From positions 41,067-105,066 of the forward strand of contig JAWAFC010000002.1 in NCBI GenBank assembly GCA_038890815.1: DNA of 64,000 bases. The letters run 5' to 3'. A program made the position numbers and the translations under genes. Position 1 is the stretch's first letter. Each line of letters starts with the position of its first letter. Of this stretch, positions 9,078 through 59,335 are shown piece by piece. This DNA comes from Candidatus Micrarchaeia archaeon (lineage in GTDB: Archaea; Micrarchaeota; Micrarchaeia; Burarchaeales; JACRGF01). The notes under the pieces were generated by a model. The model was not told where the DNA came from, did not search any database, and was given only the letters and a program-made list of their open reading frames with translations.

Positions 9078-9845
9078 GTGCGGCCTTTTGAAGTCGTGGC
9101 TGTGGCCTTTCTTGCAGCGCTCGCCGTGCTGCTGCAGCTTTACCGAGGTTTTTTCGGGGTACAGCTCACGAGCCTGATGTGGATTGATCTGGTCGGCGTG
9201 CCCGCGCTGCTGGCCTTTTTCCTTTTCGGGTTCGAGCACGCGCTGTACGTGAGCGTGCTGACCGCGCTGGCCGTGACCTTCGCCACGCCCGAATCCTGGC
9301 TCGGCGCGAGCGCGAAGTTTGCCGCCACAATGTGCATGCTCATTGTGCCAGCCACATACGCGCTGTATCGGAGGAATTTGGATGTGGGCATGATGGCGGC
9401 CATCCTCGTGGTCGGCACAGCCTACTCGCTGACCGCATTTGTGCTGTCGGGCGCGGTGAATCTGGCGAGCCAGGCATGGATAGAGATCACCGACCCACTT
9501 CTTCTCGGCGTGCTGCCCATACTCGCCATAGCGCTGTATGCCGTTGCGTTGCATGCCCTGTGGAGCAGGCAGAGAAGGATGTTGAGCGCGGATGAGTTCG
9601 CCGCCCCGAAAGTGCTTGCCCAGATGCTGGCCATCTCGCTCATCGTGCGAGGGCTGGTGATGATGGCTGTGTACTATTACTATGCCGGCCCACTGTTTCT
9701 CGGGCAGACAACCGAGGCGATAATGCGCGCGCTTCCCTGGGAGAGGATTTTCTTCTGGAGCGCTCTGCAGGGGAGCGTTGAGGCGCTGGTTGCCTGGGGC
9801 ATCGCCTTTCCGGCTGGTTTTCAGAAAAGATACGGAAGCTGGTGA
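9078..9845 (+). CDS. Integral membrane protein, unknown function (GTG start)
   Basis: 255 aa with 6-7 hydrophobic helices, coding-like composition, and no antisense competitor with homology. Confidence 0.45.
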   Translation: MRPFEVVAVAFLAALAVLLQLYRGFFGVQLTSLMWIDLVGVPALLAFFLFGFEHALYVSVLTALAVTFATPESWLGASAKFAATMCMLIVPATYALYRRNLDVGMMAAILVVGTAYSLTAFVLSGAVNLASQAWIEITDPLLLGVLPILAIALYAVALHALWSRQRRMLSADEFAAPKVLAQMLAISLIVRGLVMMAVYYYYAGPLFLGQTTEAIMRALPWERIFFWSALQGSVEALVAWGIAFPAGFQKRYGSW

Positions 9846-11654: not shown

Positions 11655-12605
11655 ATGCGATTGTTGGCGCTTTTTGTGCTGGCGTTGTCAGCGCTGTCCG
11701 TGCTCGCGGCCCAAGAGTTTGACGCTGTCGTTGTGGGCGTGAGCGGGGCGGCCACGCTCAGGGGCAGCGACGAGCTCAGCGTATACAATTGCAAGCTGCC
11801 CACGCAGGCGCCCCCCAGGATAGAGTTCGACATAGCCAGGCCTGCTCAGTGCGGCGAGGCATTTGTGGTGAATTATGAGAGGTATGACTTTGACCGCAGG
11901 CAGTTCGTGCCGGGAGGACAGCTGTGTATAGTGCCGCCCGCCGCCAACTGTAAGGCAACGGTGCCGATAAAGCTTGGCGGAAGCGGGCGGGGCGAGATTG
12001 AGCTCAAACTCCTCCGCCTCACCGCAACGTGCCAGGGCATCGAATATGCGAGGGAATTCACATTCAGAATAATCCACCAGCCCGATCCGGTCGAGCAGGG
12101 CGTGATGGCGAGCATGGCAGAGGCCAACGCCACAGCGGAGCGGGCGAGGGCTGTGCTGGCTGAGTGTGGCCAGTGCTGCGCCGGAGCTGGCGAGGGCGAG
12201 CTGGCAGCCGTGAGTTCCGCCCTCGCAAGGGCCGCGACCGCGCTCACGGCATGCGATATGGCGGATGCCACGAGCCAGGCGGGGTTGGCAGCACAGAGCG
12301 CGCAGGCCGCGCTGGCGCTCGCCGAAGCCAGGCTGGCCGATTGCCGTGCGAGTGGCGGCATCACCATCACGACACCGAACGTGACTGAGAATGTGACTGA
12401 GAATGTGAGCTGCGCCAACACCTGCCTTCCTGATGAGGAGCAGCTCCCTGACTGCTCATGCATCAAGAAGCCAATCAGCATCGTAGCCGGGAACATCACG
12501 GGGAATGCCACAGTCGCAAATGCCACCACGCCCCCAGCTCGGCCGAGGCCCTGCGGGCTGTTCGCCCTCCTCCTGCTGGCTTGCTTGGCAGTGCTGAGAG
12601 GATAG
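11655..12605 (+). CDS. Secreted Cys-rich putative glycoprotein with C-terminal hydrophobic anchor
   Basis: Signal peptide MRLLALFVLALSALSVLAAQEF, many Cys, tandem NVTENVTENVS sequons, and the C-terminus NITGNATVANATTPPARPRPCGLFALLLLACLAVLRG. Confidence 0.55.
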   Translation: MRLLALFVLALSALSVLAAQEFDAVVVGVSGAATLRGSDELSVYNCKLPTQAPPRIEFDIARPAQCGEAFVVNYERYDFDRRQFVPGGQLCIVPPAANCKATVPIKLGGSGRGEIELKLLRLTATCQGIEYAREFTFRIIHQPDPVEQGVMASMAEANATAERARAVLAECGQCCAGAGEGELAAVSSALARAATALTACDMADATSQAGLAAQSAQAALALAEARLADCRASGGITITTPNVTENVTENVSCANTCLPDEEQLPDCSCIKKPISIVAGNITGNATVANATTPPARPRPCGLFALLLLACLAVLRG

Positions 12606-12606
12606 C

Positions 12607-12909
12607 ATGGGCATACTCGATCTGTTGCTGGGCAAAAAGGAAACTACGAGAGGGCTGTGGTGTCTGCGCTGCAAGTCCTACATCCCTGAGGGAAGCGAGG
12701 AGTGCCCGCGCTGTCATGCCAAAGTCAGCGAGATGTTCAAAATAACCTGCCCGAACTGCAAGAAGGAGATCGCTTGGAATGCAAAGCTCTGTCCGCACTG
12801 TGGAAAGAGTTTCATCGAAACAGAGCAGACCTTCAGGTGCCCGGTATGCGGCTATGAGGCTGGATATAGGATGAACCAATGTCCTGTGTGCAACACGCCG
12901 TTAGTTTAG
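12607..12909 (+). CDS. Multi-zinc-ribbon (double zinc ribbon-like) protein
   Basis: 100 aa with four CxxC pairs (CLRC..CPRC, CPNC..CPHC, CPVC..CPVC). It starts 1 nt after the stop of the upstream secreted-protein gene. Confidence 0.55.
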   Translation: MGILDLLLGKKETTRGLWCLRCKSYIPEGSEECPRCHAKVSEMFKITCPNCKKEIAWNAKLCPHCGKSFIETEQTFRCPVCGYEAGYRMNQCPVCNTPLV

Positions 12910-13583
12910 CTCCCTTTCCTCAGATAAGTTCTGAAGAAATACAGCGAGGCGATGACTGTCGCCACGGCTGCGATGGTTATGGCGGGCGCTGCCATCTGGC
13001 TGAAGGACTCAAGCGCGAAGGCCACGGATTTTGGGGGCGCGCCGGCCACGGCCGTCTTGGCGCTCACCGCAAACGCGCTCGCCCTCTCCGAATCATTCTG
13101 TGCAAGCGCCAGCACAGCAAGCCTTACATAGCCCTCTGCTTCCTCCGTGTCGAGCCCCTGCCTGCTCGCTCTCACTATGCTGTCATTGGCCTCAGCGATG
13201 AGCCGGAGCGCCAGCGCGTGCTGTGAGGGTGAGGGAAGAGGCTTGGCATTGCCCACCTCAATCCTCTGGGGCTGGCCCGACTGCCGAGCGAAGCCATCGG
13301 CGCTGCAATCGCACTTCCATGTGTGATTGCCAGCGGACAGAAACACCGAGCGTGTGAAGGAGGGTGAGCGCACGTCGTAGGAAGAGGAGTCCACAACGAT
13401 GTCGCACTTCCCGCCCGGCACCGCCCCACCCGCATAGCGGTAGCTGCATGTGAGCGAAACCCAGCCCGGCGAAGGCAACGAGGATGGCACGGCCTGCTGG
13501 AACAGCGTCGTGGGCACGTCAACCGGGGCATGCTCTGCGAAGGACAGCGCGATGCACGCCAGCGCGAGCAGAATTTTCAGCAC
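12906..13583 (-). CDS. Secreted/membrane-anchored protein, unknown function
   Basis: Sec-type signal peptide MLKILLALACIALSFA, N-x-S/T sequons, and a single C-terminal TM helix followed by RKGS. Confidence 0.45.
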   Translation of the reverse strand: MLKILLALACIALSFAEHAPVDVPTTLFQQAVPSSLPSPGWVSLTCSYRYAGGAVPGGKCDIVVDSSSYDVRSPSFTRSVFLSAGNHTWKCDCSADGFARQSGQPQRIEVGNAKPLPSPSQHALALRLIAEANDSIVRASRQGLDTEEAEGYVRLAVLALAQNDSERASAFAVSAKTAVAGAPPKSVAFALESFSQMAAPAITIAAVATVIASLYFFRTYLRKGS

Positions 13584-13618
13584 GCTCGTTTTTTATTTGT
13601 CCCGCTTAAAAAATTTCG

Positions 13619-14109
13619 TGTTCGCGGGCATAGACCTGGCGGCGAAAGAGAAAAATCCTTCCGCAGCCTGCCTGCTGGGCAGGAGGGTGCAATGCGCCAC
13701 GCTCCACTCCGACAGGGAGATAATTGCATGGGCGGCGGCCGCAAGGCCCGCGCTCATCGCGCTTGATGCGCCGCTCTCTCTTCCAAGCAAAGGGAGCCTG
13801 CGGGAAGTTGAGAGGGAGTTGATCGCGCGCGGCCTGCGCGTTTTTCCAATTCGGGGGGCCATGCGCGCGCTGGCGAGAAGGGGGATGAGGCTGAGAAGAA
13901 AGCTCGCTGCCCTCGGCATACGGGTCATCGAGGTGCACCCGCGCTCCTCCCTGCTGGCACTCCGTCGACTCGGTCAAAACATCCGCTTTCCTGCGGCCTG
14001 CAGGAGCGAGCACGAGAGGGATGCCTGGCTGGCCGCACTCACGGCAAAGCTTTTTGCCAAAGGGAAGTGTGAGGTGATAGGCAGGGCATTCGCACTGCCC
14101 AGTGCCTAG
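13619..14109 (+). CDS. DUF429-like (RNase-H-fold, predicted nuclease) protein; start uncertain (GTG 13619 proposed)
   Basis: VFAGIDLAAKEKNPSAACLLG...IALDAPLSLP resembles the DUF429 N-terminal catalytic block. A TTTTATTTG/TTAAAAAA box at 13591-13613 directly precedes the GTG. The track ORF starting at 13450 overlaps a convergent gene. Confidence 0.4.
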
Positions 14110-14219
14110 GGCGAGATTTGAACTCGCGACTTCCAGATTTCCCGTCATCGCCCGGGGCTCGGCACTCACATCGCGTGCGATATGAGTCTGGCGCTCTAAC
14201 CAGGCTGAGCTACCTAGGC
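14103..14219 (-). tRNA. tRNA-Met (CAU), elongator-type (G1:C72), with ~41-nt intron at canonical 37/38 position. Could alternatively be tRNA-Ile2 (CAU).
   Basis: Hand-folded. Acceptor GCCUAGG/CCUAGGC with discriminator A; D arm GCUC-AGCCUGGUUAG-AGCG; anticodon stem CCAGA/UCUGG with loop CUCAUA+intron; T arm GCGAG-UUCAAAU-CUCGC. No encoded CCA. Confidence 0.75.
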
Positions 14220-14251
14220 AAAAAACAAGTTGGAATTAACAATAAATAAAC

Positions 14252-14662
14252 TCATCGCTCAAGGGCGAAGGATATCTGCTCGTATTCTCCGCCCGCGCGG
14301 GCGAGCAGGCGGGTGGTTGTGATTTTTCGCGTGGAGTGCGCCCCACACCCGAACTCGCGCGACCACATCCGCATGCTGACGCGGAGGCAGGCGCCCAGCC
14401 TATTCGCGATGCCGCTGAGCTTTGCCTCGGCCTCCGCCCATCTGCCGGCTGCAAGCTCATCGAAAACCCCTAACCCATGCGCCACTTCAATGGCATCATC
14501 GAGAAGCTGGCTGTCGTAGAGAAAGGCATGTCTCTGCGCGAGCGCGCCCTGGGTGAGCGAGAGAAATGGCATGAGGAGCACGATGGCCAGCAGGATGCTG
14601 AGCAGGGCCTCAAGCATGAGCGCAAAACCCCTATCCGCAAACGATGAGCGCATCGAGCTCAC
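14252..14662 (-). CDS. Prepilin-like protein with class III (type IV pilin) signal peptide
   Basis: N-terminus MSSMRSSFADRG|FALMLEALLSILLAIVLLMPF has a basic residue-Gly cleavage context followed by a hydrophobic helix. It is last in a tandem of four such genes. Confidence 0.5.
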   Translation of the reverse strand: MSSMRSSFADRGFALMLEALLSILLAIVLLMPFLSLTQGALAQRHAFLYDSQLLDDAIEVAHGLGVFDELAAGRWAEAEAKLSGIANRLGACLRVSMRMWSREFGCGAHSTRKITTTRLLARAGGEYEQISFALER

Positions 14663-15032
14663 CTGCGACGAGCACTATGCGGCGAATGCACCGGCCGCTT
14701 GCCCCACGCTGGCTCTCGAGGCTTGCGGTGACATTCAGGCGCGCCAGCTTTGCGCCGAATGCCGCCAGCTTGGCCTTATCGATCCTGTTGGGATGCACGA
14801 CCGGCGGCAGCATCTCGCTCTCAGCTGCCTCTGCCTTGACGAGGCGGTCGGCCACGGACAGCAGCAATGCCTCTCTCTCCCAATCCTGCACCGAGGCCGC
14901 CGAGCGCTCATAGAATAGGAAGAGAACGGCAGATACGATGTGGAGCAGCAACAGCACGGCTAGGCTGGCGAGCAGCGCGTCGCTGGCGAGCAGCGCGCCC
15001 TTAGACTTTCTGAAGGAAATATAAGCTCGCAT
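14631..15032 (-). CDS. Prepilin-like protein with class III signal peptide
   Basis: N-terminus MRAYISFRKSKG|ALLASDALLASLAVLLLLHIV; overlapping neighbours give an operon arrangement. Confidence 0.5.
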   Translation of the reverse strand: MRAYISFRKSKGALLASDALLASLAVLLLLHIVSAVLFLFYERSAASVQDWEREALLLSVADRLVKAEAAESEMLPPVVHPNRIDKAKLAAFGAKLARLNVTASLESQRGASGRCIRRIVLVAGELDALIVCG

Positions 15033-15324
15033 TCAGCGCACCCAGCACTTTCGTTGAGGCGGCCTTCCCCCTGACATAGCAGCTGACCTGGTCCACGGGT
15101 GTCGTGCAATTTCCGAGATCGAATGAATGCGAGAACTGGCGAGCATTTGTCGCCAGCGCATCCTGAATGGCAGCGCTGCGAATGGAGATTGCCTTCGCCT
15201 CGAGCGCGGCGTGCTTTTCCGAAAGGCTCCGCGCGCTCGCGCTCAGGCTGCTGATCAACAGGAAGAGGAAGGCCAGATAGGCGGCCAGCACGACCATCGC
15301 CTCGACCGAAGACTGCCCTCTCAA
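15001..15324 (-). CDS. Prepilin-like protein with class III signal peptide
   Basis: N-terminus MRG|QSSVEAMVVLAAYLAFLFLLISS, with Gln at +1 and Glu at +5, reminiscent of type IV pilins. Confidence 0.55.
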   Translation of the reverse strand: MRGQSSVEAMVVLAAYLAFLFLLISSLSASARSLSEKHAALEAKAISIRSAAIQDALATNARQFSHSFDLGNCTTPVDQVSCYVRGKAASTKVLGALNASLYFLQKV

Positions 15325-15782
15325 TAACTCACCACTACCCCCGCGGGGATGAAGGAGGTGAAATTTGCCTCTGGCGAGCGCAACACGATGATGATGTCGC
15401 TCATGAGCGTGAGGCGGCGCGCATGCGGCTCAGCCACGATGAGGCGTGCGCACGCCTCGAGCGGCACGCCCTCGGCACCGCACCACAGGCTCGCATTGAA
15501 GCCATGAAAATCGCCCTGAGTGAGCGTGTGCTCTAGCGAGCGGAGGCGCCAGGCGAGCGCAGCCGAGATGTCGTGGGAAGCCGACAACGCTCGTGCATCC
15601 TGCCGAATGCCATCGAGCAGCGCATGCTTGGCGTCCATCTCGGCGGCATGGGCGCGCTCGATGAGCAGTAGCTCCCACTCGGCAGAGCGCGCCATGCGCA
15701 CGTTATTGAGATAGCTGTGGGAGGCGGCGAGCAGCGCGCTCAGCGCGATGGCGACAAGGAGAAAACTGAAAAAACCTCTCAC
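15321..15782 (-). CDS. Prepilin-like protein with class III signal peptide (first gene of the tandem)
   Basis: N-terminus MRG|FFSFLLVAIALSALLAASHSY. An A/T-rich box (ggatataaaatg, 15800-15812) lies upstream. Confidence 0.5.
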   Translation of the reverse strand: MRGFFSFLLVAIALSALLAASHSYLNNVRMARSAEWELLLIERAHAAEMDAKHALLDGIRQDARALSASHDISAALAWRLRSLEHTLTQGDFHGFNASLWCGAEGVPLEACARLIVAEPHARRLTLMSDIIIVLRSPEANFTSFIPAGVVVSY

Positions 15783-15835
15783 GCAAAGCTAGGCGGGAAA
15801 GGATATAAAATGCTTGTGAGCCAAATTTACGAGGC

Positions 15836-15910
15836 AGCGGGGTAGGGTAGCCTGGAGTGCCCGCTGGGCTCATAACCCAGAGATCGGTGGTTCAAATCCA
15901 CTCCCCGCTA
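15836..15910 (+). tRNA. Initiator tRNA-Met (CAU)
   Basis: 75 nt, no intron. A1:U72 terminal pair and three consecutive G:C pairs (GGG/CCC) at the bottom of the anticodon stem, which are archaeal initiator hallmarks. T arm GGUGG-UUCAAAU-CCACU. Confidence 0.8.
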
Positions 15911-16351
15911 TCGTCTTTCTCTCTCCTCGAGCAGCGCGATGAGGCGGGCAAGTTGCTCGCTGTTCTTAGCGAGCAGCGCGGCGATGAGCCCTTCCTTGTC
16001 CTCTATCTTTCTGAGCGCGCGCCCGGCGCAAATCCTCACCCACTCTCGCTCATCCTCGAGCGCCAGAATGAGCGCGGCCACGCCTGCGGGCGCACGCAGC
16101 TCGCCGAGCAGATAACAGGCGGCCAGGCGCTCGCGCGGTCCGCCCGAGCGGATGAGCTCCTTGGCCACTTCCACCGAGGCTGGCGCGAGGCGGGCGAGCT
16201 TTCTCAGCGCGCGCTCCACTTCCGGCCTTTTTTCCCACCCTTCGCGCGGGGGGTCTTCTATGAAGGCGAGCAGCGAGCCGAAAATCACACGCGCCTTCTT
16301 GAACTTGCTCTCATCGAGCGCACGTTCGCCCTTGGCGGCAGCCAGCCGCAA
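15908..16351 (-). CDS. HEAT-repeat (PBS-lyase HEAT-like) protein
   Basis: 147 aa with repeated ...RxxAxxALGxxGxxxAVxALxxALxDE... units. It lies 12 nt downstream of the large membrane/coiled-coil gene. Confidence 0.55.
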   Translation of the reverse strand: MRLAAAKGERALDESKFKKARVIFGSLLAFIEDPPREGWEKRPEVERALRKLARLAPASVEVAKELIRSGGPRERLAACYLLGELRAPAGVAALILALEDEREWVRICAGRALRKIEDKEGLIAALLAKNSEQLARLIALLEERERR

Positions 16352-16362
16352 TTCCTCGGTTG

Positions 16363-19300
16363 TCAGCTCCTCCCCTCCAGCAGCGCTGCAATCTCCCTCG
16401 CTGCCTCGCTCATCGCGATGAGCACAAACCCCATATCCTCCTGCGGCTTTATCAATGTTATGAGGATGGCCATGCGACCGGCTGCGAGCAACACGAGCCG
16501 GCCCTCTTTCGTGGCGATGATGACATCTTTGACCGCCCCGCGGTGCAGCTCGCTCGAGACCATCTCGGACTTCGCCGCAATGCGGGCCGCCATGGCTGCT
16601 ATGCTCTCGGCATTCATCTCTAGCGGCAGCGTGCTGGCTATCATGAGCCCATCTCGCCGCACCACGGCCGCGGCCTCAATCTTCTGCGAGGCCACGAGCC
16701 GCTGCAGTATGACCTCGAACTGGAACTTTGAGACGGGTGCGGGCCTGAGGCGCACGAGCGCGTTGTTTTCTATGACAAAGCTTTCGGCCGGGTGCTCGGC
16801 CAAATATCGCTCTATGGCCCACTTCCTCCATTTTTCGGGCACGGCCACCAGCATCGACTCAGTGACGGTATCCTGTCTGCGCAACAGGGAGGCGATGTGC
16901 GCGCTCCAGGCAGGCCAGTTGGACAGCATGGCGAGCTTTTCGCGCAGGCTCGCCAGCGCGCCCTCGGCGGCCGACAGCGCGGCCTCTATCTGCTCGCGCA
17001 CGCCTTCGACGCTGTCGAGGGCAGACAGAGCTGCGCGCAGGCGCTCCAGGTCGATGGCATACAACGTCTCGTGCTCGATGCCTACATCAATGCCTTCGGC
17101 AAGACACCTGTTGATCAGCCCATCGGCTTCCTTCAATGTCTGCTCGAGCGAGGCCAGCCTGCCCTGTAGCGCCTCAAATGCCTCAAGTCTTTCGGCCATG
17201 CCCTTCTCGAGCGCTGTGGCCCTCTCGACAGCGGCGTCTATGTCTTTCGCGACCGGTTCACGCGCCTTGAGCGCGGCGCGCAACCTCTCAAGGTTGATCG
17301 ACCTCGCGGCTGTTTCCTCCCGCCATGCGCTGAGACCGACTTTTTTTGCTTTGGCGATCATTTCCTCTACGCGGCTCAGCGCTGCAGCCGCCAGCGCGAT
17401 GCGGTCGGCCTGATTGCGAAAATCTTCAATGACATCGCCGATGTGCGCCTCCAGCCTCTCAAAGGAATTCTCTGTGGCCGTCAGCAGCTCATCGGCGGCC
17501 GCGAACTTCCCGGCCCTGAATAGCTCGCGCACGCGGGCCATCGCGCCCTCCAGATCGAGCGCGCCGACTTCCTTCGCCTCTGCGCTCAGGTCTAACCCAA
17601 GCTTTGCTCCCTGCGCGAGCATGTGTTGGATCACATCGATGCGCTTGGCCAGAATGTCGCGCCTTTCGGTGAGGCCCCTGAAGGCCTCGAGCTTGTCACG
17701 CAAGAGAGGTTTGACCTTGTCATAGCGCGAGGCCTCGGCCTCGAGCGACTTCGCCGCTTCATCGAATGCCCTGCGGCCGGCGGCATCGATGATGTCGGGC
17801 AGCGCGGCCTCTATTTCCGACAGCGTCCTTTCCTCGGCAGTCGTATCCAACCAGCCGCGCGCGGGCTCCAGCTCCTTCCTATCGCCCTCAATGGCCCTGT
17901 GCAGCGCCTCGGCCTTCTCCCGGATCTTGGCGGCCACATCGGACTTGCAATAGCCGCACACATCGCTCACCACGCTTATTGAGCGGCCACATTCCGGGCA
18001 CCGGAATGTCCTGCCCAGCAAGAGCTTGCGCTCCTCGCCTTTCTTCGTCGCAGCCTGGGCGAGCGAGGTCAGCTCGGCCAGCTTTTGGCTGAGGATGGTT
18101 TCGGCTTTGGCCAGCTCATCGGCGCTCCACGCTCTCTTCGCCTCCTCCAGCGCAGCGCTGGCTGGCGAGGCCGTGAGAGCCTTTTGTTCCTCCCTTATGT
18201 CAGCTCCGATTTTTTCTGCCACCTCAAGCGCCGAGCGCGCGGCCGTCTCGGCCTTCTGCACTTTCTCGGCAAGGCCTAACAGCCTCTCCTGCGCGGCCAG
18301 CTTTGCTTCAAGTGCGGCCTTCGCCCTGTCGACCGCGCTGCGCGCCCTTTGCAATTCTATGTTGGCCTGGGCGAGGTTGGCAGCTCTGCAGGCCGCCTCG
18401 CAGGCATCGAGAATGGCGAGCGCGCCACGCGCGGCCTTCTCTTCGGCATCGAACACAAAGCCCTGCCGGCGCGGCTCACGTGTACGCTCGAGCAGCAGCT
18501 CGAGCGACTCGCGCGCGCTCTTGGCCGCCTCGAGGATCTGCGCTTCGTACATGACGGCGCGCACGCCAGTCGGCAGAGGCTTCTCGTAATACCGCGGGCC
18601 CAGCACCGCGCCCTTACAGAAGTCCGCAATCAGGAAGTATAGGGAGAGGAGGCCCAGAAAGATGGAGAACGAGCCAGTGGTTTTGATTAGATCGGCGTTC
18701 AGCGCTTGTAGGAGATCGCTCTCGGCCGTGAGAGGTTGCGGGGGAGGAGCAGTGAGGTAGATGGCCGCAAGCCCGAGGATGGTGAGGCTCATTCCGATTG
18801 CCAGGTAGGCGCCTCTCTGCGTGCCCCCGTGGCCCGCAAATGCATAGATGGCCTCCTTGATGTCCTTTCTGGTGCGCACGGCATTCACGAGAGCGAGGAT
18901 GAACGAAATTCCGCTCCACACTAGCCACAGCGCGACAAGCATGGCTGCGGCAACGATGCCTATGGCCACATGGAAGTTGGAGAGCGAGATGAGGGAGGAC
19001 AGCATGCCCGAGTAAATCCCCTTGACGAGGATGAGCAGGGGCGAGGCCATGGGCTCAAGGCGCGTGAGCGAGAGCTGGGGTTTGCTGAGCCCTTGCGCCC
19101 ACGCCAGCCAGCCTTCGGCTGGCTCGCGGACATCCCTGATGAGGTATACGATTTCGCTCTCGCCCGCCCGCCCCCCGATGTTGCTTTGCCTCCAGCTGAC
19201 AACGAAAGGTGGGCGTGCCGAGATGCCGGTGTAATTCATTCCAAACTCGATTTGGGATAGCTCGGATGCCAAGGGCACGGTTTCGATGAGTGTGAGGTCG

Positions 19301-20130
19301 GAGAATGCCGAGCCTTCGGACATGGAGAGGGTCAGGCGCACGAGCACTGTGTAGCGCTCTGGGGGCTTTGGTGCGCGAGGGGGTGCAGCTTCTGCCGTCC
19401 GGATGCTCGCGATGAATGTCCTCCTGGCATCCTCGAGCAGGTTGAGGCCGATCGGAACCGGCGCGCATACCCCGAGCGCGCTCAGCGAATTGGTCGAGAT
19501 GCCAGCGGCCGAGGCTCTGGCGCGCTCGAAATCGCCCGCTATCCTGTTAAGCTCGCCGAGCGAGGGGCTCGTCTGCACCGTCCTCAGGTCGGCATACAGC
19601 GCGCTCAGAGCCTCATCGAGCCCATGTGAGGCGCGCGAGAACTCGAGCACCGCATGGACGAGCGCATCGCCATAGAGCGCGAGCTTTGCCGCGCACTCTG
19701 GTGATGCGGCGCAGGCCGCCCTGCAGGCCGCGCGGTCCGCACAGGGTGTCTGCACGCCGGCCGCTTTTCGGCAGGCCATCTCGGCAGGCCCGTCCGGCGT
19801 TTGGGAAAAGCGCGAGGCATTGAATGCCGTGAGCAGGCGGTGCGTCTCGGCGAGCTTTGCAGGGTCGAGGAGAAATGACTCGGTGAAGTTGAACCCCTCT
19901 TCCCGCGCCTCAATGACGCCCGATACGAGCACCTGCCTGCTCAGGCTCATCTGCGGTGTGATGTTGTAGGGCTCGAAAAAAAATGAAAACCAGTCCGGCG
20001 CGCCATCCCCGTCGGCATCGCCGCTTGTCCAGTTGGCCAGCACTTCCCGCTCGGGCGCGATGAGCTCACGCCTCTCGAGGCAGCCTGCGAGAAACACGAG
20101 CAGCACGACGAGCGCGAGTTTTTTGCGCAT
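16363..20130 (-). CDS. Large (1255 aa) membrane protein. It has an N-terminal lipoprotein-like signal, an extracellular domain, ~4 TM helices, ~500 aa of coiled coil with an embedded zinc ribbon, and a C-terminal Roadblock/LC7 domain.
   Basis: N-terminus MRKKLALVVLLVFLAGC. TM segments sit around residues 395-520. Long heptad-like Ala/Glu/Lys/Leu-rich segments follow. The zinc ribbon is CPECGRSISVVSDVCGYC. The C-terminus ...AAVVRRDGLMIASTLPLEMNAESIAAMAARIAAKSEMVSSEL...RLVLLAAGRMAILITLIKPQEDMGFVLIAMSEAAREIAALLEG matches the Roadblock/LC7 fold pattern. Confidence 0.65.
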   Translation of the reverse strand: MRKKLALVVLLVFLAGCLERRELIAPEREVLANWTSGDADGDGAPDWFSFFFEPYNITPQMSLSRQVLVSGVIEAREEGFNFTESFLLDPAKLAETHRLLTAFNASRFSQTPDGPAEMACRKAAGVQTPCADRAACRAACAASPECAAKLALYGDALVHAVLEFSRASHGLDEALSALYADLRTVQTSPSLGELNRIAGDFERARASAAGISTNSLSALGVCAPVPIGLNLLEDARRTFIASIRTAEAAPPRAPKPPERYTVLVRLTLSMSEGSAFSDLTLIETVPLASELSQIEFGMNYTGISARPPFVVSWRQSNIGGRAGESEIVYLIRDVREPAEGWLAWAQGLSKPQLSLTRLEPMASPLLILVKGIYSGMLSSLISLSNFHVAIGIVAAAMLVALWLVWSGISFILALVNAVRTRKDIKEAIYAFAGHGGTQRGAYLAIGMSLTILGLAAIYLTAPPPQPLTAESDLLQALNADLIKTTGSFSIFLGLLSLYFLIADFCKGAVLGPRYYEKPLPTGVRAVMYEAQILEAAKSARESLELLLERTREPRRQGFVFDAEEKAARGALAILDACEAACRAANLAQANIELQRARSAVDRAKAALEAKLAAQERLLGLAEKVQKAETAARSALEVAEKIGADIREEQKALTASPASAALEEAKRAWSADELAKAETILSQKLAELTSLAQAATKKGEERKLLLGRTFRCPECGRSISVVSDVCGYCKSDVAAKIREKAEALHRAIEGDRKELEPARGWLDTTAEERTLSEIEAALPDIIDAAGRRAFDEAAKSLEAEASRYDKVKPLLRDKLEAFRGLTERRDILAKRIDVIQHMLAQGAKLGLDLSAEAKEVGALDLEGAMARVRELFRAGKFAAADELLTATENSFERLEAHIGDVIEDFRNQADRIALAAAALSRVEEMIAKAKKVGLSAWREETAARSINLERLRAALKAREPVAKDIDAAVERATALEKGMAERLEAFEALQGRLASLEQTLKEADGLINRCLAEGIDVGIEHETLYAIDLERLRAALSALDSVEGVREQIEAALSAAEGALASLREKLAMLSNWPAWSAHIASLLRRQDTVTESMLVAVPEKWRKWAIERYLAEHPAESFVIENNALVRLRPAPVSKFQFEVILQRLVASQKIEAAAVVRRDGLMIASTLPLEMNAESIAAMAARIAAKSEMVSSELHRGAVKDVIIATKEGRLVLLAAGRMAILITLIKPQEDMGFVLIAMSEAAREIAALLEGRS

Positions 20131-20493: not shown

Positions 20494-20583
20494 GCCCCAG
20501 TAGCTCAGCGGTAGAACGGCGTTCCGCCAGAGAGCGCTCGCCTTGTAAGCGAGATGTCGGGAGTTCAAATCTCCCCTGGGGCT
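20494..20583 (+). tRNA. tRNA-Thr (UGU) with a ~16-nt non-canonical intron in the D-loop/D-stem junction
   Basis: Acceptor GCCCCAG/CUGGGGC+U; anticodon arm CUCGC-CUUGUAA-GCGAG; T arm GGGAG-UUCAAAU-CUCCC. About 16 extra nt (ACGGCGUUCCGCCAGA, containing the GGCG-UUC-CGCC hairpin) sit between D-loop and D-stem 3' strand. A TATA-like gttttataac lies at 20481-20490. Confidence 0.65.
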
Positions 20584-31716: not shown

Positions 31717-33486
31717 CTAAGCCAGCAGGTGCAGGCCGAGCGATAGTTTGAACACGCCGAGCGAGAGGGGAGCGAGGATGAGGAAATACACGAGCGCCTT
31801 GCGTGGGGAGCCCTCCTGAAAAGCCACAAGCAAGCCGGACAGGAAAGCATAGATAATGAGGTAGGCCTGCACGGCATCGAGCGTGGCCGAGAAGAGCGTG
31901 AGGCGCTCAGTAGCCGGCAGCGCGGAGAAGAGCGCGCCTGCTGACAGATTGAGCTCTGCCACCATGTTGGCAACGAGCGCGAGTATGAAGGGAACGAGCA
32001 CACTGCCTCCTATCAGCATCGTGTACTTCTGCATGGCCAGCAGCGCCGCGCGCTCCCTCACGAGCGCGGCAAAGCCCATGATGTCTTCGGCCGTCTCGCG
32101 CACGGCATGTTCGAAAGCCGCACCGGCCGACCAGCCAGCCGCGAGAAGGTGTGTTGCACGTGAGAGCAACAGCGAGTCATTGCGTTCGCCTATCTCAAGC
32201 ACAGCCCGCTCAAGCGGCATGCCCGACCTGACCTGGTTGAGGGCCATGCGGAACTCCTCGCTGAGGGGCCCGAAGCCAGAGCCGGCAATGCTCTCGAGAA
32301 TTCTCTCTACCGAAACACCCCTGGGAAACGAGGAGGCCTGAAACAGCGCATCGGGCAGAAACCTCTCAAGCTCTTTTGTGCGCTGCTCGAGCCTGTAGGA
32401 AAGAGAGAGATAGGTGAGGGCTGGCAGTGCCAGGGGAATTGGGGAGTAGGCCCGCATCGCTGGAGCAGACAGCGAAAGCGCAAGCAGAAGGAGAAAGCAC
32501 AGTATGCCTACGGCGAGGGAGAGGAGGATGAGGCGCTTAGCTCCAAAATGGGCGAAAGGGGCAGGGACCACGGCATCGAGGCGAGCCATTTCCTCCTCGG
32601 AAAGGGGGGATGAAAGGGAGCTGTGCAGAAAGGGTGGGGCTTTCATGCGTATCGCCATGATGACAAGCAGGCCGAGCAAGGGAAAGACCACGAGATAGGC
32701 GAGCCAGATATCGCTCGCGGTGAAAATGGGCGAAAAAATCGCCGAACCCACCACAACGTATGCCTGAAAGAGTGCGGGAATGACGCACGCCACGGCGAGA
32801 AAAAGCAGGCCGAGAAATGACAGCGCAGCCGCATACTCACGCGCGCCAGCTTTCTGAACATCGATGAGCTCATCGGCCAGCCGCTTGAGGGCCTCACCCT
32901 GCCCGCCATGCTGATAGGCTGCCACGAGGTGGGCGACAGCGCGCCTAAATGCCAGCGAGCCCACGCGGCCGGCCAGCCTGCGCAGGGCATCGGGAAAGGT
33001 GGCCCCACCTTTCTTTACCTCATTGAGCACGAGCGCGAGCTCGGCCGAGGTCTGGTAGCGCATGCGCGCCGCGCGCTCGATGGCCTTCTCGAAAGGCGTA
33101 TTGAGCGAAAGCTCGGCGGCCAGAAAACGAAGGAGGAAAGGAAGCTCTGCCTCCAGCTGCGCAGCCCGCCTTTTCGCCTGAAATGCTGGCAAGGATTTGA
33201 GCACGAGGAAGATGAGGGAGAAGGATAGCAGGGAGAGCGACAGGGATGTCGGCGCATCGCGCAAGAGGAAGTAAAACGCGCCGAAGAGAACAGAGGCAAG
33301 GAAAAGCGAGAGTAGGAGGGAACGGAAGAGATAAGAGCGCGCGGGGATGCCCATGCCTGCCTGCTCAAGCTGCGACTGTAGGCACGCGGTTTCCTGCCTA
33401 GTGAAAAGCCAGCTCACGCGAGGTTTTAAATTGGCGGTAAATTTATGCTTGACTGCGATTATCGAAAAACGAGCTCTTCCCTGCAT
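31717..33486 (-). CDS. Type II secretion system F-domain membrane protein (FlaJ/TadC-like platform protein); start uncertain (33486 or ~33354)
   Basis: Two T2SS-F-like repeats (e.g. ...ALRRLAGRVGSLAFRRAVAHLVAAYQHGG...), ~9 TM helices, and a length typical of archaeal FlaJ/TadC homologues. No adjacent secretion ATPase is in the window. Confidence 0.55.
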   Translation of the reverse strand: MQGRARFSIIAVKHKFTANLKPRVSWLFTRQETACLQSQLEQAGMGIPARSYLFRSLLLSLFLASVLFGAFYFLLRDAPTSLSLSLLSFSLIFLVLKSLPAFQAKRRAAQLEAELPFLLRFLAAELSLNTPFEKAIERAARMRYQTSAELALVLNEVKKGGATFPDALRRLAGRVGSLAFRRAVAHLVAAYQHGGQGEALKRLADELIDVQKAGAREYAAALSFLGLLFLAVACVIPALFQAYVVVGSAIFSPIFTASDIWLAYLVVFPLLGLLVIMAIRMKAPPFLHSSLSSPLSEEEMARLDAVVPAPFAHFGAKRLILLSLAVGILCFLLLLALSLSAPAMRAYSPIPLALPALTYLSLSYRLEQRTKELERFLPDALFQASSFPRGVSVERILESIAGSGFGPLSEEFRMALNQVRSGMPLERAVLEIGERNDSLLLSRATHLLAAGWSAGAAFEHAVRETAEDIMGFAALVRERAALLAMQKYTMLIGGSVLVPFILALVANMVAELNLSAGALFSALPATERLTLFSATLDAVQAYLIIYAFLSGLLVAFQEGSPRKALVYFLILAPLSLGVFKLSLGLHLLA

Positions 33487-33672
33487 TCAGAGCGCATCCG
33501 CAACAGCAAAAGATCGTGGCGCAATCCATTTAAACCTCGCCCGTGTAAAATGTTCGGTCAGCGGCCATAGGGGAGGGGCCAGACCCGAACCCATTCCGAA
33601 CTCGGCAGTGAATCCCTCCCACGATGTCGCTTGTACTGCCATGCGGCGGGAAAGCGCATTGCTGCTGGCCAT

Positions 33673-43849: not shown

Positions 43850-45184
43850 ATGAACTATGCAAGCCTCAGGAAAAAAATCAGCGAGAAGAGCGCGCTCGTG
43901 TGCGTGGTTGGCCAGGGCTACGTTGGTATTCACCTTTCGGTCGCTTTTGCGCGCGCCGGCTTCCGCACAACAGGCTTTGACATAAGCGAAAAGCGCATTG
44001 CCGAGCTGTCACGCTGTTATGACAGCGCCGGGGAAGTCGGCGAGGACACGCTCCGCGAGCTGCAGGCGAGCGGAAAGCTCGCCTTTACCACGAATCCAGC
44101 TTCCATCAGCGAGGCTGATTTTATCTTGCTCGCCCTCCCCAGCCTCCTCACAAAGAAAAAGGAGCCGGACCTATCAGCTATTCGCGCTGCAAGCGAAACT
44201 GTCGGAAAGCATATGAAGCGCGGCGCGGTTGTCGTGCTCGAGTCAAGCGTCTACCCTGGTGTGACTGAGGAAGAGGTTCTTCCGCGCCTGGAGGAGCTCT
44301 CTGGCATGAGAGCTGGCATCGATTTCTCTGTAGGCTATTCGCCGGAGCGTGTGAATCCGGGCGACCCAGAACATTCGTTAGAGAAAATTGTGAAGGTGGT
44401 TGCCGGCCTGGATGACGAGACGACCGATCTCCTTGCTTTTCTCTATGGCCACATAACAAAGGCTGGCACATTCAAGGCCAAAAACATCAAGACTGCCGAG
44501 GCTGCCAAAATCATCGAGAACATTCAGCGCGACCTCAACATTGCGCTCATGAATGAGTTCGCCATCATCTTTGAGCGCATGGGCCTTAGCATATGGGATG
44601 TGTTAGAGGTTGCGAAGACGAAATGGAACTTCATACCATTTAAGCCAGGCCTTGTGGGCGGTTATTGCGTACCCGTCAATCCCTATTACCTCGTATACAA
44701 GGCGCGAAGGCTCGGCTATCGCCCAAGAGTCATGCTTGCCGGCCGAAGCACGAACGACTCCATGCCAAAACACATTGTCAGTTTGACAGAGAAGGCGCTT
44801 GCGAGGGTGGGGAAAAAAACAAAGGGCTCGCGCGTGCTGGTGCTTGGCCTGAGCTTTAAGGAGAACGTACGTGATCCGAGGTTTTCCCCTGTCAAGGAGG
44901 TTATTAAGGGTCTGAAGAGAAAAGGCTGTGCTGTGCTCGCGCATGACCCCCTCCTCTTTAAGTTTGATGTGGAGAAGGAATTTGGAGTAAAAAATCTTGA
45001 TAATTTTGGGATGGCTAGTGGTGTGGATGCAATAATTCTTGCTACAGGTCACAACGAATTTAGGAAAATACCTCTGAGCGAGCTGAGGCGAATCTGCAAC
45101 GAAAAGCCTGTGTTGGTTGACACGAGGAATTTCTTCAGCGAAAAGGAAGGGGAATCGGCCGGATTCATAGTAGTGCGACTATAG
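43850..45184 (+). CDS. UDP-N-acetylhexosamine 6-dehydrogenase (WbpO/TviB/WecC-like nucleotide-sugar dehydrogenase)
   Basis: 444 aa. It has the N-terminal Rossmann VCVVGQGYVGIHLSVAFA, a catalytic-Cys region, and the C-terminal VLVLGLSFKENVRDPRFSP block typical of the UDP-Glc/GDP-Man dehydrogenase family. Confidence 0.7.
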   Translation: MNYASLRKKISEKSALVCVVGQGYVGIHLSVAFARAGFRTTGFDISEKRIAELSRCYDSAGEVGEDTLRELQASGKLAFTTNPASISEADFILLALPSLLTKKKEPDLSAIRAASETVGKHMKRGAVVVLESSVYPGVTEEEVLPRLEELSGMRAGIDFSVGYSPERVNPGDPEHSLEKIVKVVAGLDDETTDLLAFLYGHITKAGTFKAKNIKTAEAAKIIENIQRDLNIALMNEFAIIFERMGLSIWDVLEVAKTKWNFIPFKPGLVGGYCVPVNPYYLVYKARRLGYRPRVMLAGRSTNDSMPKHIVSLTEKALARVGKKTKGSRVLVLGLSFKENVRDPRFSPVKEVIKGLKRKGCAVLAHDPLLFKFDVEKEFGVKNLDNFGMASGVDAIILATGHNEFRKIPLSELRRICNEKPVLVDTRNFFSEKEGESAGFIVVRL

Positions 45185-45203
45185 GTCAAGCGCAATCCAT
45201 TGA

Positions 45204-47072
45204 CTAAAATTCAATTTTAAAGGCATCGCTCCATAGCTCAAGCTCAAGCAGCGCCCACAGCTTGTAGGAATACGCGGCCCTACCTTTCCTGTGCTCATTG
45301 AGCATCCTGAACACTTCGTCCTTGCTGAACAGTTTTGCGCATACTCTACCTTCTGCTATTTTTTGCTCAAGGAACTCGCCAACCTCTTTCTTGAACCATG
45401 GACCGAGCGGAATTCCGAACCCACGTTTTTTCCTTTCCAGAATCTCCAGCGGAAGCCACGGCTTAAGGGCGCGCTTGAACACATGTTTAGTCTCGAGCCC
45501 ACGGAGCTTAAGGTCGCTAGGAATTGTCGCGGCAAACTCAACAAACTCGTGATCGAGCAATGGTGCTCTCGCCTCAAGACTGTGCGCCATGCTCGTTCTG
45601 TCTACTTTTGCAAGAATATCATCGGGCAAATAGGTATTGAAATCTGCGTACATCATCTTGTCCAGTTGTGTCTTTGCATTGCGCTTTGCAAAACAGGCCG
45701 TAATCGATTTCTGGGACGCCGCCTTTTTTAAGCTTGCGAGCCTGCCCTCTTTATACAGCCTTTCTCTTTCCTCGTTGCGATAGAACGACACAAGCTCGGC
45801 ATATCTCTCCGGAAGTGGGAGTCGTGCGAGGGCTTCGAACTTCTCTGCGCGCTGCGCGAGCAGGTGCATCCCAACAAAAGAGAGTGCTTTTTTTGCGGCC
45901 GCCACGCCGATAGCTCTGAGTGGTTGTGGGATTTTTGCATATCCTCTAAGCAACATATCAATAACATACCTATCATAGCCAGCGAAATTCTCATCGCCAC
46001 CATCCCCAGACAACACAACCGTCACATAGCGTCTCGCAAACTCTGAGACCATATAAGTCGGAACTGCACTTGCATCTGCGAAAGGCTCGTCTAAGTACCA
46101 TGCAATTTTTGGAAGATTTTTTATCACGTCTTTTGGATAGAGAATCTTCTCATAATGCTTTGTCCCTAGATGCTCGCTTACCTCTCTTGCGAAAGAGAGT
46201 TCGCTGTAGTCACTTTCCTCGAATCCGATGGTGAAGGTCTTGACATCCTCCGTAGCAACTTTCGTCATCGCAGCGACAACCGCGCTGGAATCTATCCCTC
46301 CCGAAAGAAAGGCGCCGAGCGGAACATCGCTTATAAGGCGCATGCTCACGCTCTCTTTGAGCCTCGAAATAATTTCATTCTCCCAAGCCTCCATACTCAT
46401 CTTCAGGGGTCTGTACCATATATCCCAATATCTATGCAACTCCATCCCTTTTTTTGTCACCAATGCATAATGTGCTGCCTGAAGTTTCTTGGCACCTAAA
46501 AAAATCGTTCTCGGCGCTGGAATATACTGCAGTGCTAAGAACTCGTCGAGCGCGCGCCAATCAATAACCTTACTGATCACGCCACTTTCACTCAGCGCCT
46601 TAAGCTCGGATGCAAAATAAAAAACTCCATCGCGCCACGAATAATAAAGTGGCTTTTTCCCTAATCTATCTCTAGCCAAAAAGAGCATCTTTCTCTTTGC
46701 GTCCCACAGTGCGAATGCAAACATCCCACGCAGACGGGACAGGCAGGCTGTCCCCCACTCCTCATATGCATGAACAATTGTCTCTGTATCGCTCTTTGTT
46801 GTAAAGCGATGTCCACGTAGTTCAAGCTCTTTACGGAGTTGTTGGTAATTGTATATCTCCCCATTGAAAACGATATGGACATCCCCATCCTCATTGCTCT
46901 GTGGTTGATGGCCAGTCTTAAGATCTATAACACTTAGCCTACGCATGCCAAGCGCAACGTTTCGCTCAGCAAATATACCCCAGTCGTCTGGCCCACGGTG
47001 ACGTAAGAGCGCTAGCATACGCTTCAGAATGTTTGCGTCGCCAGGACCCAGAAAACCCGCGATGCCACACAC
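45204..47072 (-). CDS. asnB: Asparagine synthetase-like glutamine amidotransferase (AsnB/WbpS-type), paralogue 1
   Basis: 622 aa. The N-terminal MCGIAGFLG has Cys2 as the Ntn nucleophile. The central ...SGGIDSS... PP-loop ATP-pyrophosphatase motif is LSGGIDSSAVVA. Confidence 0.8.
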   Translation of the reverse strand: MCGIAGFLGPGDANILKRMLALLRHRGPDDWGIFAERNVALGMRRLSVIDLKTGHQPQSNEDGDVHIVFNGEIYNYQQLRKELELRGHRFTTKSDTETIVHAYEEWGTACLSRLRGMFAFALWDAKRKMLFLARDRLGKKPLYYSWRDGVFYFASELKALSESGVISKVIDWRALDEFLALQYIPAPRTIFLGAKKLQAAHYALVTKKGMELHRYWDIWYRPLKMSMEAWENEIISRLKESVSMRLISDVPLGAFLSGGIDSSAVVAAMTKVATEDVKTFTIGFEESDYSELSFAREVSEHLGTKHYEKILYPKDVIKNLPKIAWYLDEPFADASAVPTYMVSEFARRYVTVVLSGDGGDENFAGYDRYVIDMLLRGYAKIPQPLRAIGVAAAKKALSFVGMHLLAQRAEKFEALARLPLPERYAELVSFYRNEERERLYKEGRLASLKKAASQKSITACFAKRNAKTQLDKMMYADFNTYLPDDILAKVDRTSMAHSLEARAPLLDHEFVEFAATIPSDLKLRGLETKHVFKRALKPWLPLEILERKKRGFGIPLGPWFKKEVGEFLEQKIAEGRVCAKLFSKDEVFRMLNEHRKGRAAYSYKLWALLELELWSDAFKIEF

Positions 47073-47081
47073 ACAAAACCC

Positions 47082-48032
47082 TCAACCATTCTCCCTAAAC
47101 CATCTCACAAACTTCTTGATACCTTCATCAATTGACGTACGCGGCTCATATCCAAGCATCCGTCGCGCTTTCGAGATGTCCGCATACGTTATTGGAACAT
47201 CACCGGGCTGAGGAGGAAGATGCGTGATCTTTGCTTTTTTCCCAACATTTTTTTCTATGAGCGTAATAAGCTCGTTGAGCGAAACAGTTCGTGAGCCACC
47301 TAAGTTAAATATCTCGAAACTGAATGGCTTTTCGAGTGCAGCGAGTATTCCCTGTACGATGTCATCTATGTAGGTATAGTCTCTTTTCATGCTACCGTCC
47401 CCAAAAACTGGAATCTCTTTTCCTTCGCTGATGAGGCGAACGAACTTGTGGATAGCCAAATCTGGCCTCTGGCGCGGGCCATAAACTGTGAAAAGGCGTA
47501 GCACTGTCACAGGTATGCCATACAGATGGCTGTAGGTGAAACAGAACAGTTCTGCCGCGCGCTTGCTTGCAGCATACGGTGAGATGGGCTGGGCTATGGG
47601 ATCTTCCTCACTGAACGGCACTTTGTTGTTTATGCCGTACACGCTGCTGGAGGAGCCGAAAATGAATGTTTTGAGTTTCGCGTTTTTGCATGCCTCAAGC
47701 AAGCTGATGGTTCCATTCACGTTTACATCCGCATATTCGAGTGGCCTTTCTAGCGAAGGGCGCACACCTGCCTTCGCTGCGAGGTGGATGACTGCTTCCG
47801 GTTTTGCCTGCGCGACAAGACTCTTCATTCTTTTTGTATCGCGAATGTCAGCCCGGACTAGTTTGAAAAGTCTGTTTTTCTTAAGCGCAGCGATGTTTCT
47901 TTCTTTTATTCTGCGGTTATAGAGGAAGGAATCAAAGTTGTCTACTCCTATGACGTTGTTTCCTCTACTAACCAGCGCCTCACACACATGCGAGCCGATG
48001 AAGCCTGCTGCACCAGTAACTAAAATCCTCAT
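47082..48032 (-). CDS. NAD-dependent epimerase/dehydratase (UDP-glucuronate 4-epimerase-like SDR)
   Basis: MRILVTGAAGFIGSHV with the YAASKRAAE YxxxK catalytic motif. Confidence 0.7.
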   Translation of the reverse strand: MRILVTGAAGFIGSHVCEALVSRGNNVIGVDNFDSFLYNRRIKERNIAALKKNRLFKLVRADIRDTKRMKSLVAQAKPEAVIHLAAKAGVRPSLERPLEYADVNVNGTISLLEACKNAKLKTFIFGSSSSVYGINNKVPFSEEDPIAQPISPYAASKRAAELFCFTYSHLYGIPVTVLRLFTVYGPRQRPDLAIHKFVRLISEGKEIPVFGDGSMKRDYTYIDDIVQGILAALEKPFSFEIFNLGGSRTVSLNELITLIEKNVGKKAKITHLPPQPGDVPITYADISKARRMLGYEPRTSIDEGIKKFVRWFRENG

Positions 48033-48060
48033 GAGAAAATTTTGGCGATGAAATTAAAAA

Positions 48061-51856: not shown

Positions 51857-51921
51857 AGCTACTGTGCTGTTGTGGCCGAAGACTATCCCTAAAATATAAA
51901 TAGTTCCACCCGGTACTTATT

Positions 51922-53097: not shown

Positions 53098-53098
53098 A

Positions 53099-56528: not shown

Positions 56529-56530
56529 CA

Positions 56531-57959: not shown

Positions 57960-57963
57960 CTTT

Positions 57964-59280: not shown

Positions 59281-59335
59281 ATAATGTCTTTGGCATGTAA
59301 TTATTAATGTACATTTCTACTAAGCTAAGAAAAGC

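Follow-up and report, generated by a model that had tools for sequence, protein, structure and literature searches.

Four different type IV pilin-like genes in a conserved and lineage-restricted operon of a Candidatus Micrarchaeia archaeon

When a 64,000-nucleotide (nt) stretch of DNA (positions 41,067 to 105,066 of contig JAWAFC010000002.1, assembly GCA_038890815.1; hereafter the window) from a metagenome-assembled genome of Candidatus Micrarchaeia (DPANN) was analyzed, four overlapping genes, named here A to D, were found on the minus strand between a tRNA(CAU) gene (14103-14219) and a tRNA-Met gene (15836-15910). The first gene of the operon, A, is an open reading frame (ORF) of 153 amino acids (aa) at 15321-15782. 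Gene B (15001-15324, 107 aa) starts with a TTG inside a TTGA that overlaps the stop codon of A, and it is followed by the ORF of gene C (14631-15032, 133 aa). Gene D encodes 133 aa when read from the ATG at 14653 (14252-14653) and 136 aa when read from the GTG at 14662 (14252-14662). Adjacent genes overlap by 4 nt (A/B), 32 nt (B/C) and 23 or 32 nt (C/D, depending on the start of D). Protein B has been deposited as NCBI MEM4389268.1 (locus tag QXG98_01225), where it is annotated as 'hypothetical protein'.

The locus was compared with orthologous loci in GCA_038870455.1 (L002) and JGI 3300010938 (L005), and with more distant loci including one in GCA_027346825.1 (L011). In the case of gene D, the ATG at 14653 is the more likely start codon, because the GTG at 14662 falls inside the AGGTGA that lies 6 nt upstream of that ATG and is kept in L002 and L005.

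The tRNA gene at 14103-14219 (minus strand) is of the elongator type and co-directional with the operon. It was missed by ARAGORN and found with Rfam (60.8 bits), and it carries an insertion of about 42-44 nt after the anticodon CAU, at the canonical intron position 37/38. Its acceptor stem begins with GCC, which we take to indicate elongator Met rather than tRNA-Ile2(CAU). The gene is conserved with its intron in L002, L005 and L014. The tRNA-Met(CAU) gene at 15836-15910 (plus strand; ARAGORN, and Rfam with 60.1 bits) is divergent from the operon and has initiator features that can be read from the sequence, namely an A1:U72 pair and three G:C pairs (GGG/CCC) closing the anticodon stem.

All four genes have a GC content at third codon positions (GC3) of 0.73-0.77, which is similar to that of the neighbouring genes. 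When A to D were compared with their orthologues in L002 and L005, the amino acid identity was 54-79 %, the synonymous divergence (dS) was 0.6-1.6 and the ratio of non-synonymous to synonymous divergence (dN/dS) was 0.18-0.40 (A 0.28-0.40; C 0.19-0.23; D 0.22-0.28). Thus, A to D are all real genes under purifying selection. The initial annotation, made from the sequence of the window alone, had described four tandem prepilin-like genes between two tRNA-Met(CAU) genes, and the ORFs, the Rfam matches and the dN/dS values bear this out.

The gene order A-B-C-D is shared with L002 and L005, and an A-B-C(-D) order was also found in the distant loci L007, L008, L011, L014, L016 and L020. The L011 proteins A, B, C and D have 213, 103, 141 and about 127 aa, respectively, and those of L014 and L016 have about 248, 104, about 160 and 137 aa. 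Three of the loci (L007, L008 and L020) are short contigs carrying A-B or A-B-C. The lowest identity of the distant orthologues to the window proteins is about 22-29 %, and the motifs of each family are retained at 22-40 %.

Outside these loci, few relatives were observed. Protein A had only four relatives among 1.84e9 representative proteins, all with an M[KR]GF start, and B-family searches of 5.8 billion proteins returned nine matches including the window's own B; the families are therefore narrowly distributed. A scan of the GTDB genomes with C gave nothing beyond one relative already known, and a metagenome scan with a five-sequence alignment of A added three loci, none of which adjoins type IV pilus (T4P) machinery. 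When A to D and every family member were searched against Pfam and NCBIfam, none scored above threshold; in particular, C had no meaningful Pfam match and D had no Pfam match in any of its 6 members. When the profiles of B and D were compared with hhalign, the alignment did not extend past residue 21, and within it the Gly and the Glu fell into the same columns; B and D are therefore not detectable paralogues. Beyond the leader and the first part of the α1 helix, nothing detectable is common to the four families. The operon is conserved and lineage-restricted, and its four type IV pilin-like genes all differ from one another.

The pilin-like character of the four proteins lies in their N-termini. 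All ORFs in the six frames of the window were scanned with a regular expression that approximates FlaFind ([KR][GA], a permitted +1 residue and about 20 uncharged hydrophobic residues). A to D were the only real genes that matched and they are adjacent, so four neighbouring positives are far beyond chance. The other matches, four ORF entries at three places, were set aside as low-GC3, internal or antisense frames that we judged not to be real genes.

A [KR][GA] pair lies within the first 3-20 residues of all four window proteins and of all their orthologues. From +1 to +20 the mean Kyte-Doolittle value is 1.8-2.5, and no charge was found by the regular expression between +7 and +20. Archaeal prepilin processing requires G, A or S at -1 and a charged residue at -2 (PMC4371748). 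The class III signal-peptide features that had been proposed for all four proteins are thus present, they are invariant in orthologues down to the lowest identities given above, and a FlaFind-type check, in our own version, is positive for each protein.

Each family has its own signature around the predicted cleavage site (marked here by a slash). Protein A begins MRG/FFSFLLV, has no acidic residue from +1 to +8 and belongs to a family with the signature M[KR]G/[FLV]. Protein B begins MRG/QSSVE, with Gln at +1, Ser at +3 and Glu at +5, and its family signature is [KR][GA]/QxSxE; these three residues are kept in all 10 B sequences (the window and nine other loci), except for a Thr in place of Ser in L020. 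The leader of C reads MRAYISFRKSKG/ALLASD, with the signature [KR][GA]/ and an Asp that is invariant at +6 and is found at +5 in distant relatives. The leader of D reads MRSSFADRG/FALMLEALLSILLA, with Glu at +6 and the family signature KG/[FV]xxxLE.

The +1 Gln and +5 Glu of B had initially been taken to mimic bacterial pilins. Substrates of EppA, a second archaeal peptidase, have a conserved +1 Gln and +5 Glu, and EpdB-E show KGQI, KGQV and KGQL (PMC4371748). B matches this pattern and therefore carries the archaeal EppA/DUF361 motif and is no bacterial mimic; only the +5 Glu is shared with bacteria. When compared with the bacterial G/[FM]xxxE pattern, D has Phe at +1 but its Glu at +6, and B has Glu at +5 but Gln at +1. 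The bacterial N_methyl model (PF07963, TIGR02532) did not match A to D or any of their families. The only family matched by several B members was PF04021 (Class_IIIsignal), which 4 of the 10 B sequences matched weakly, all below threshold and with a best E-value of 0.038. At position +9 the window's B has Val, as opposed to the Leu in the QxSxExxxL motif of PF04021.

The closest known parallel to B is found in the Epd pilins (EpdA-E) of Methanococcus maripaludis, which share its [KR]G/QxSxE motif with +1 Gln and +5 Glu and in which several small pilin-like genes also stand together in an operon (PMC4371748; PMC4858521). Several minor pilins are essential for piliation in M. maripaludis (PMC4371748). 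The present operon differs in that the +1 Gln is found in B only, whereas A, C and D have Phe or Ala at +1, and in that PF04021 is matched only below threshold and not by the window's B. No EppA gene was seen, and the pilin operon is detached from the machinery. In addition, the Epd-like platform consists of two single-T2SSF-domain genes (PMC6668835), whereas the window encodes one 589-aa protein with two T2SSF stretches.

A pair of Cys residues is conserved after the helix in each of the four families. In A, the W-C...C pair is accompanied by a C-terminal N-x-S/T sequon in most members; in B, the external domain of every member has a Cys pair, at aligned positions in most; and in C, the C-terminal pair is invariant. 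In A (near the C-terminus), B and C, the external domains also have N-x-S/T sequons at equivalent positions. An AglB/STT3 oligosaccharyltransferase (892 aa) is encoded just beyond the end of the window on the same contig. These Cys pairs and sequons, with AglB nearby, fit a predicted N-in, C-out topology with an exposed domain.

The A family is variable in this region. Its members in L007, L008, L009, L011, L014 and L016 have 199-249 aa and four Cys, and they contain an insert of about 46 residues that includes a CxxC motif; the A proteins of the window, L002 and L005 have lost this insert. The insert could represent variable tip chemistry or metal binding.

AlphaFold2 predicted for A, from a five-sequence alignment, a helix at 2-65, a second helix at 73-88 and then a sheet of 5-6 strands, with a mean predicted local distance difference test score (pLDDT) of 89.7. 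For B, the model from eight sequences (pLDDT 68.9) has a helix at 2-59 and a β-hairpin. Both predicted helix-plus-sheet models are compatible with the 'lollipop' architecture of type IV pilins. When the A model was searched against the PDB with Foldseek, nothing was found at an E-value below 0.1, and profile searches of the PDB sequences with B and D returned no pilin.

The 53 nt that separate the A start codon from the initiator tRNA gene form a putative divergent promoter region (15783-15835). This spacer contains the element GGGAAAGG-ATATAAAA-TGCTT, with the TATA box at 15803-15810. The element is kept in L002, L005, L007 and L009, and L008 has a weaker TATA-like element. The mRNA of A is probably leaderless, since the TATA box lies only 20-25 nt from the A start codon; it also lies about 25 nt from the 5' end of the initiator tRNA gene, so the predicted promoter region is probably divergent and would serve both the operon and that gene. 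At the other end of the operon, 32 nt separate the stop codon of D from the co-directional intron-bearing tRNA gene, and this spacer (TTTATTTATT...TTTTTT) could double as terminator and TATA box.

The start codons of B, C and D all fall within the gene before them, and a conserved GGTG(A) core (GGTGA in B) precedes each of them by 5-9 nt. These overlaps and cores suggest that the three genes are translationally coupled, with similar stoichiometry.

This arrangement bears on the earlier proposal of one major and three minor pilins. In such a self-contained subunit set, the part of major pilin would fall to the short, EpdE-like B (Q+1/E+5) or to A as the first gene. B shares its processing motif (KGQx) with EpdE, the major pilin of M. 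maripaludis, and is the smallest of the four; A stands beside a strong, conserved TATA box; and the window holds no other pilin-like gene. However, the overlap and coupling of the four genes argue for similar stoichiometry, conservation singles out none of them, and archaeal major pilins are commonly encoded by stand-alone genes (PMC4858521). The major pilin could also lie elsewhere, as only 64 kb of the genome was inspected. We found no feature that marks a major subunit among these overlapping genes, of which the internal ones have their own Shine-Dalgarno-like motifs, and consider a self-contained set unlikely.

We read A to D, with a probability of about 0.6, as a co-translated set of four peptidase-processed pilin-like proteins that would serve as accessory or minor subunits and prime or cap a T4P-like filament. 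A stoichiometric minor or accessory set is preferred because the genes overlap, the internal ones have their own Shine-Dalgarno-like motifs, and the four unrelated families are conserved as a unit. Large comparative surveys routinely interpret groups of small proteins with class III signal peptides as minor pilins (PMC4858521).

Several observations weigh against this reading. Sequence and profile searches gave no significant match to any pilin family for A, C, D or the window's B, and PF04021 did not match the window's B at all, its hidden Markov model staying below the gathering threshold for the whole family. The leader of A has only three residues, and the Phe at +2 of this protein presumably falls outside the strict FlaFind residue set. 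The choice of minor over major status follows from operon logic only. In addition, the module never adjoins an ATPase, platform or peptidase gene in any context seen, and a prepilin peptidase was not found in the roughly 84 kb of contig examined.

Pilus machinery is nevertheless encoded on the same contig. A FlaJ/TadC-like platform protein of 589 aa (31717-33486, minus strand) matches PF00482 (T2SSF) in two stretches with an E-value of 2.6e-17, and also matches ArlJ/FlaJ below threshold. Its gene lies 15.9 kb from the module, in good agreement with the 16 kb first given, and is flanked by unrelated genes; the protein is a candidate for the cognate assembly platform. A stand-alone 5S rRNA gene (33557-33670, plus strand; 63 bits) lies directly beside the platform gene, and no 16S or 23S rRNA gene was found in the window.

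Neither a T2SSE ATPase nor an A24 peptidase was found among the scanned ORFs of the window (a few small or unassigned ORFs were left out) or in the precomputed Pfam lists. The initial annotation had reported that no secretion ATPase or prepilin peptidase is present in the window; this stands for the scanned ORFs and does not extend to the contig as regards the ATPase. Logan contig L010 overlaps the right end of the window with 100 % identity, and it encodes a 485-aa T2SSE ATPase (L010:17433-18890) at the window equivalent of 69684-71141, which is 5.7 kb beyond the window end. Its best matches are FlaI- or TadA-family models. With the platform and this ATPase on one contig, the genome is not one devoid of pilus machinery, a circumstance that had been named as speaking against a pilus function.

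As for the peptidase, a 255-aa membrane protein (9078-9845) was considered as a hidden prepilin peptidase and rejected, as it has no Pfam match and no visible Asp motif of the peptidase type. A T4P system of the Methanococci type and a FlaK-like peptidase are reported for Micrarchaeota (PMC5498576).

The region beyond the platform gene has a different composition. The GC content falls from about 0.60 to 0.45-0.52 over about 44000-64000 of the window and over L010. Genes for glycan biosynthesis form an island here, with three AsnB-like paralogues of asparagine synthase, a carbamoyltransferase, a Wzx-like flippase, glycosyltransferases and sugar epimerases; the island may be an N-glycan locus that was acquired horizontally or that evolves fast.

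The distance between the module and the T4P machinery, which never lie side by side, and the lack of significant homology or fold matches to pilins would also be expected if A to D were uncleaved bitopic (signal-anchor) proteins of a membrane or surface complex other than a T4P. Partners for such a complex might be the neighbouring Roadblock-LC7 and HEAT proteins. The gene at 16363-20130 (minus strand) encodes a 1255-aa protein with a lipobox-like signal, a transmembrane block, about 600 aa of coiled coil, a zinc ribbon and a C-terminal Roadblock/LC7 domain, and it is followed by the gene of a 147-aa HEAT-repeat protein (15908-16351, minus strand). A 610-aa Robl_LC7 protein is encoded 2.4 kb from the module in the distant locus L014, and a HEAT_PBS protein near the module in L011, so that a Roadblock-domain membrane protein accompanies the module in the window and L014 and a HEAT protein in the window and L011.

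On the other hand, the proximity of the Roadblock, DUF429 and PAP2 genes looks like general synteny: they are either on the opposite strand or separated from the module by a tRNA gene, and L011 and L016 lack them. A plain anchor would hardly explain the invariant [KR]-[GA] directly ahead of the helix or the family-specific acidic residue kept at +5/+6 of an otherwise hydrophobic helix, and the QxSxE of B is a recognised signature of prepilin-peptidase substrates (PMC4371748). We regard uncleaved anchor proteins as unlikely.

Two further neighbours of the module are predicted to be secreted. A 225-aa protein (12906-13583, minus strand) has a Sec-type signal peptide and a C-terminal transmembrane anchor, and a 316-aa protein (11655-12605, plus strand) has a Sec-type signal; neither has a Pfam match, and L002 and L005 carry both at syntenic positions. 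Both are possible components of the cell surface.

Because of the two flanking tRNA genes, the operon had also been described as a tRNA-bounded, exchangeable cassette. When the surroundings of the module were compared, the arrangement initiator tRNA, A-D, tRNA(CAU) and DUF429 was observed only in the window, L002 and L005. L014 has a homologous intron-bearing tRNA gene beyond DUF429 and no tRNA gene upstream of A; L016 has a different tRNA gene and a LAGLIDADG gene upstream of the module; and no tRNA gene lies near the module in L011, L019 and L020. The bracket is best described as lineage-specific synteny and not as a cassette boundary.

The DUF429 gene itself (13450-14109, plus strand) is convergent with the intron-bearing tRNA(CAU) gene and overlaps the 3' end of that gene by 7 nt, and the TAG stop codon of DUF429 is part of a palindromic CCTAGG in the acceptor stem. 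The 7-nt overlap is likewise kept in L002 and L005. Another tRNA gene of the window, at 20494-20583 (plus strand), was called tRNA-Trp(cca) by ARAGORN; this call was rejected in favour of tRNA-Thr(UGU) with U73, since the Rfam alignment and the sequence give the anticodon loop CUUGUAA. It has a D-loop insertion of about 19 nt (AGAACGGCGTTCCGCCAGA), which is probably a non-canonical intron.

The flanking tRNA genes would be accounted for if the module were a surface-structure island, mobile or exchangeable, that had been inserted there, and mobile-type neighbours do occur near distant copies. In L011 (7709-13148) the module lies beside a phage-type integrase, a DUF87/HerA-like ATPase of 652-670 aa and a ParE toxin gene, and in L016 (5934-6880) a LAGLIDADG endonuclease gene lies between the tRNA gene and the module. 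Some distant copies may therefore lie in mobile regions, unlike the copy in the window. Here, the GC content of the module (0.61) equals that of its flanks, no att-like direct repeat of the tRNA ends was found, and no integrase was found in the window region, L002 or L005. The same genes occupy the same site in three taxa with the dS values given above and are under purifying selection, and copies in L011, L014, L016, L019 and L020 have no tRNA bracket. Insertion of a mobile island at this site is thus highly improbable.

With A to D read as a minor-pilin set, the following course of events can be proposed. Transcription would start from a BRE/TATA element (BRE, transcription factor B recognition element) shared divergently with the initiator tRNA gene, giving a leaderless A, and translation of B, C and D would be coupled through the overlaps and the GGTG(A) Shine-Dalgarno cores. 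The hydrophobic helix at the N-terminus would anchor each preprotein in the membrane (N-in, C-out), and a prepilin peptidase of the PibD/FlaK/EppA type encoded elsewhere would cleave it after the invariant [KR]-G. The external domains would be disulphide-bonded and, in A to C, also N-glycosylated. The mature proteins could then bundle via their α1 helices into a roughly 1:1:1:1 minor-pilin complex, with the acid-less A placed at the distal end, and so form the structure that primes or caps a T4P-like filament. The filament would be assembled by the FlaI/TadA-like ATPase and the FlaJ/TadC-like platform of the same contig. In an episymbiotic DPANN cell, such a filament would likely serve attachment to a host or a surface.

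Other known systems resemble this set in part. The PibD substrates of the Sulfolobales (Ups/Aap) and of Haloferax (PilA) share with it the class III signal peptide, the charged residue at -2, G or A at -1, the hydrophobic α1 and N-glycosylation, which in the present proteins is predicted (PMC4371748). They differ in their +1/+3 residues (A/V/L-S types) and show no sequence similarity, and those examples are major pilins.

Within the same phylum, Ca. Mancarchaeum acidiphilum Mia14 has two T4P systems, one of the Methanococci type, and one FlaK-like peptidase, for which a role in host contact was proposed, and its key T4P components are common to many Micrarchaea (PMC5498576). The Mia14 pilins were described within loci that also hold machinery, unlike the present module. 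Since homologues of A were detectable only in a handful of metagenomic sequences among the 1.84e9 representative proteins, the module is not demonstrably the same set of genes as in Mia14.

The bacterial minor (pseudo)pilins GspH-I-J-K of the type II secretion system and FimU-PilV-W-X of the type IVa pilus may be analogous rather than homologous to A to D; all similarities were below significance. The present proteins differ from them in following the archaeal -2 K/R rule in their leaders, in having the acidic residue at +6 in C and D, and in having no PF07963 match. A to D could be an archaeal counterpart of the GspHIJK/FimU-PilVWX initiation or tip complex of four minor pilins that is confined to Micrarchaeota-like DPANN, with the acid-less A as the cap and its variable external domain, which has or lacks the CxxC insert, serving for host recognition at the tip. 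We put this forward tentatively, as a possibility and not as an expectation.

What is new here is an unannotated, lineage-restricted set of four genes; its kind, the archaeal type IV pilin-like gene set, is well known. The module, which is now 'hypothetical' and without Pfam families, gains a diagnostic N-terminal signature for each family, and the analysis corrects the attractive but unsupported idea of a tRNA-delimited, exchangeable surface cassette. It also provides concrete candidates for pilus priming or tip proteins, which stay together as one module in divergent lineages. Micrarchaeota and other DPANN archaea live in attachment to host archaea, and little is known of the molecules that make this contact. 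If the tip-complex proposal is true, A to D would be a dedicated episymbiotic attachment device built from families without detectable relatives elsewhere.

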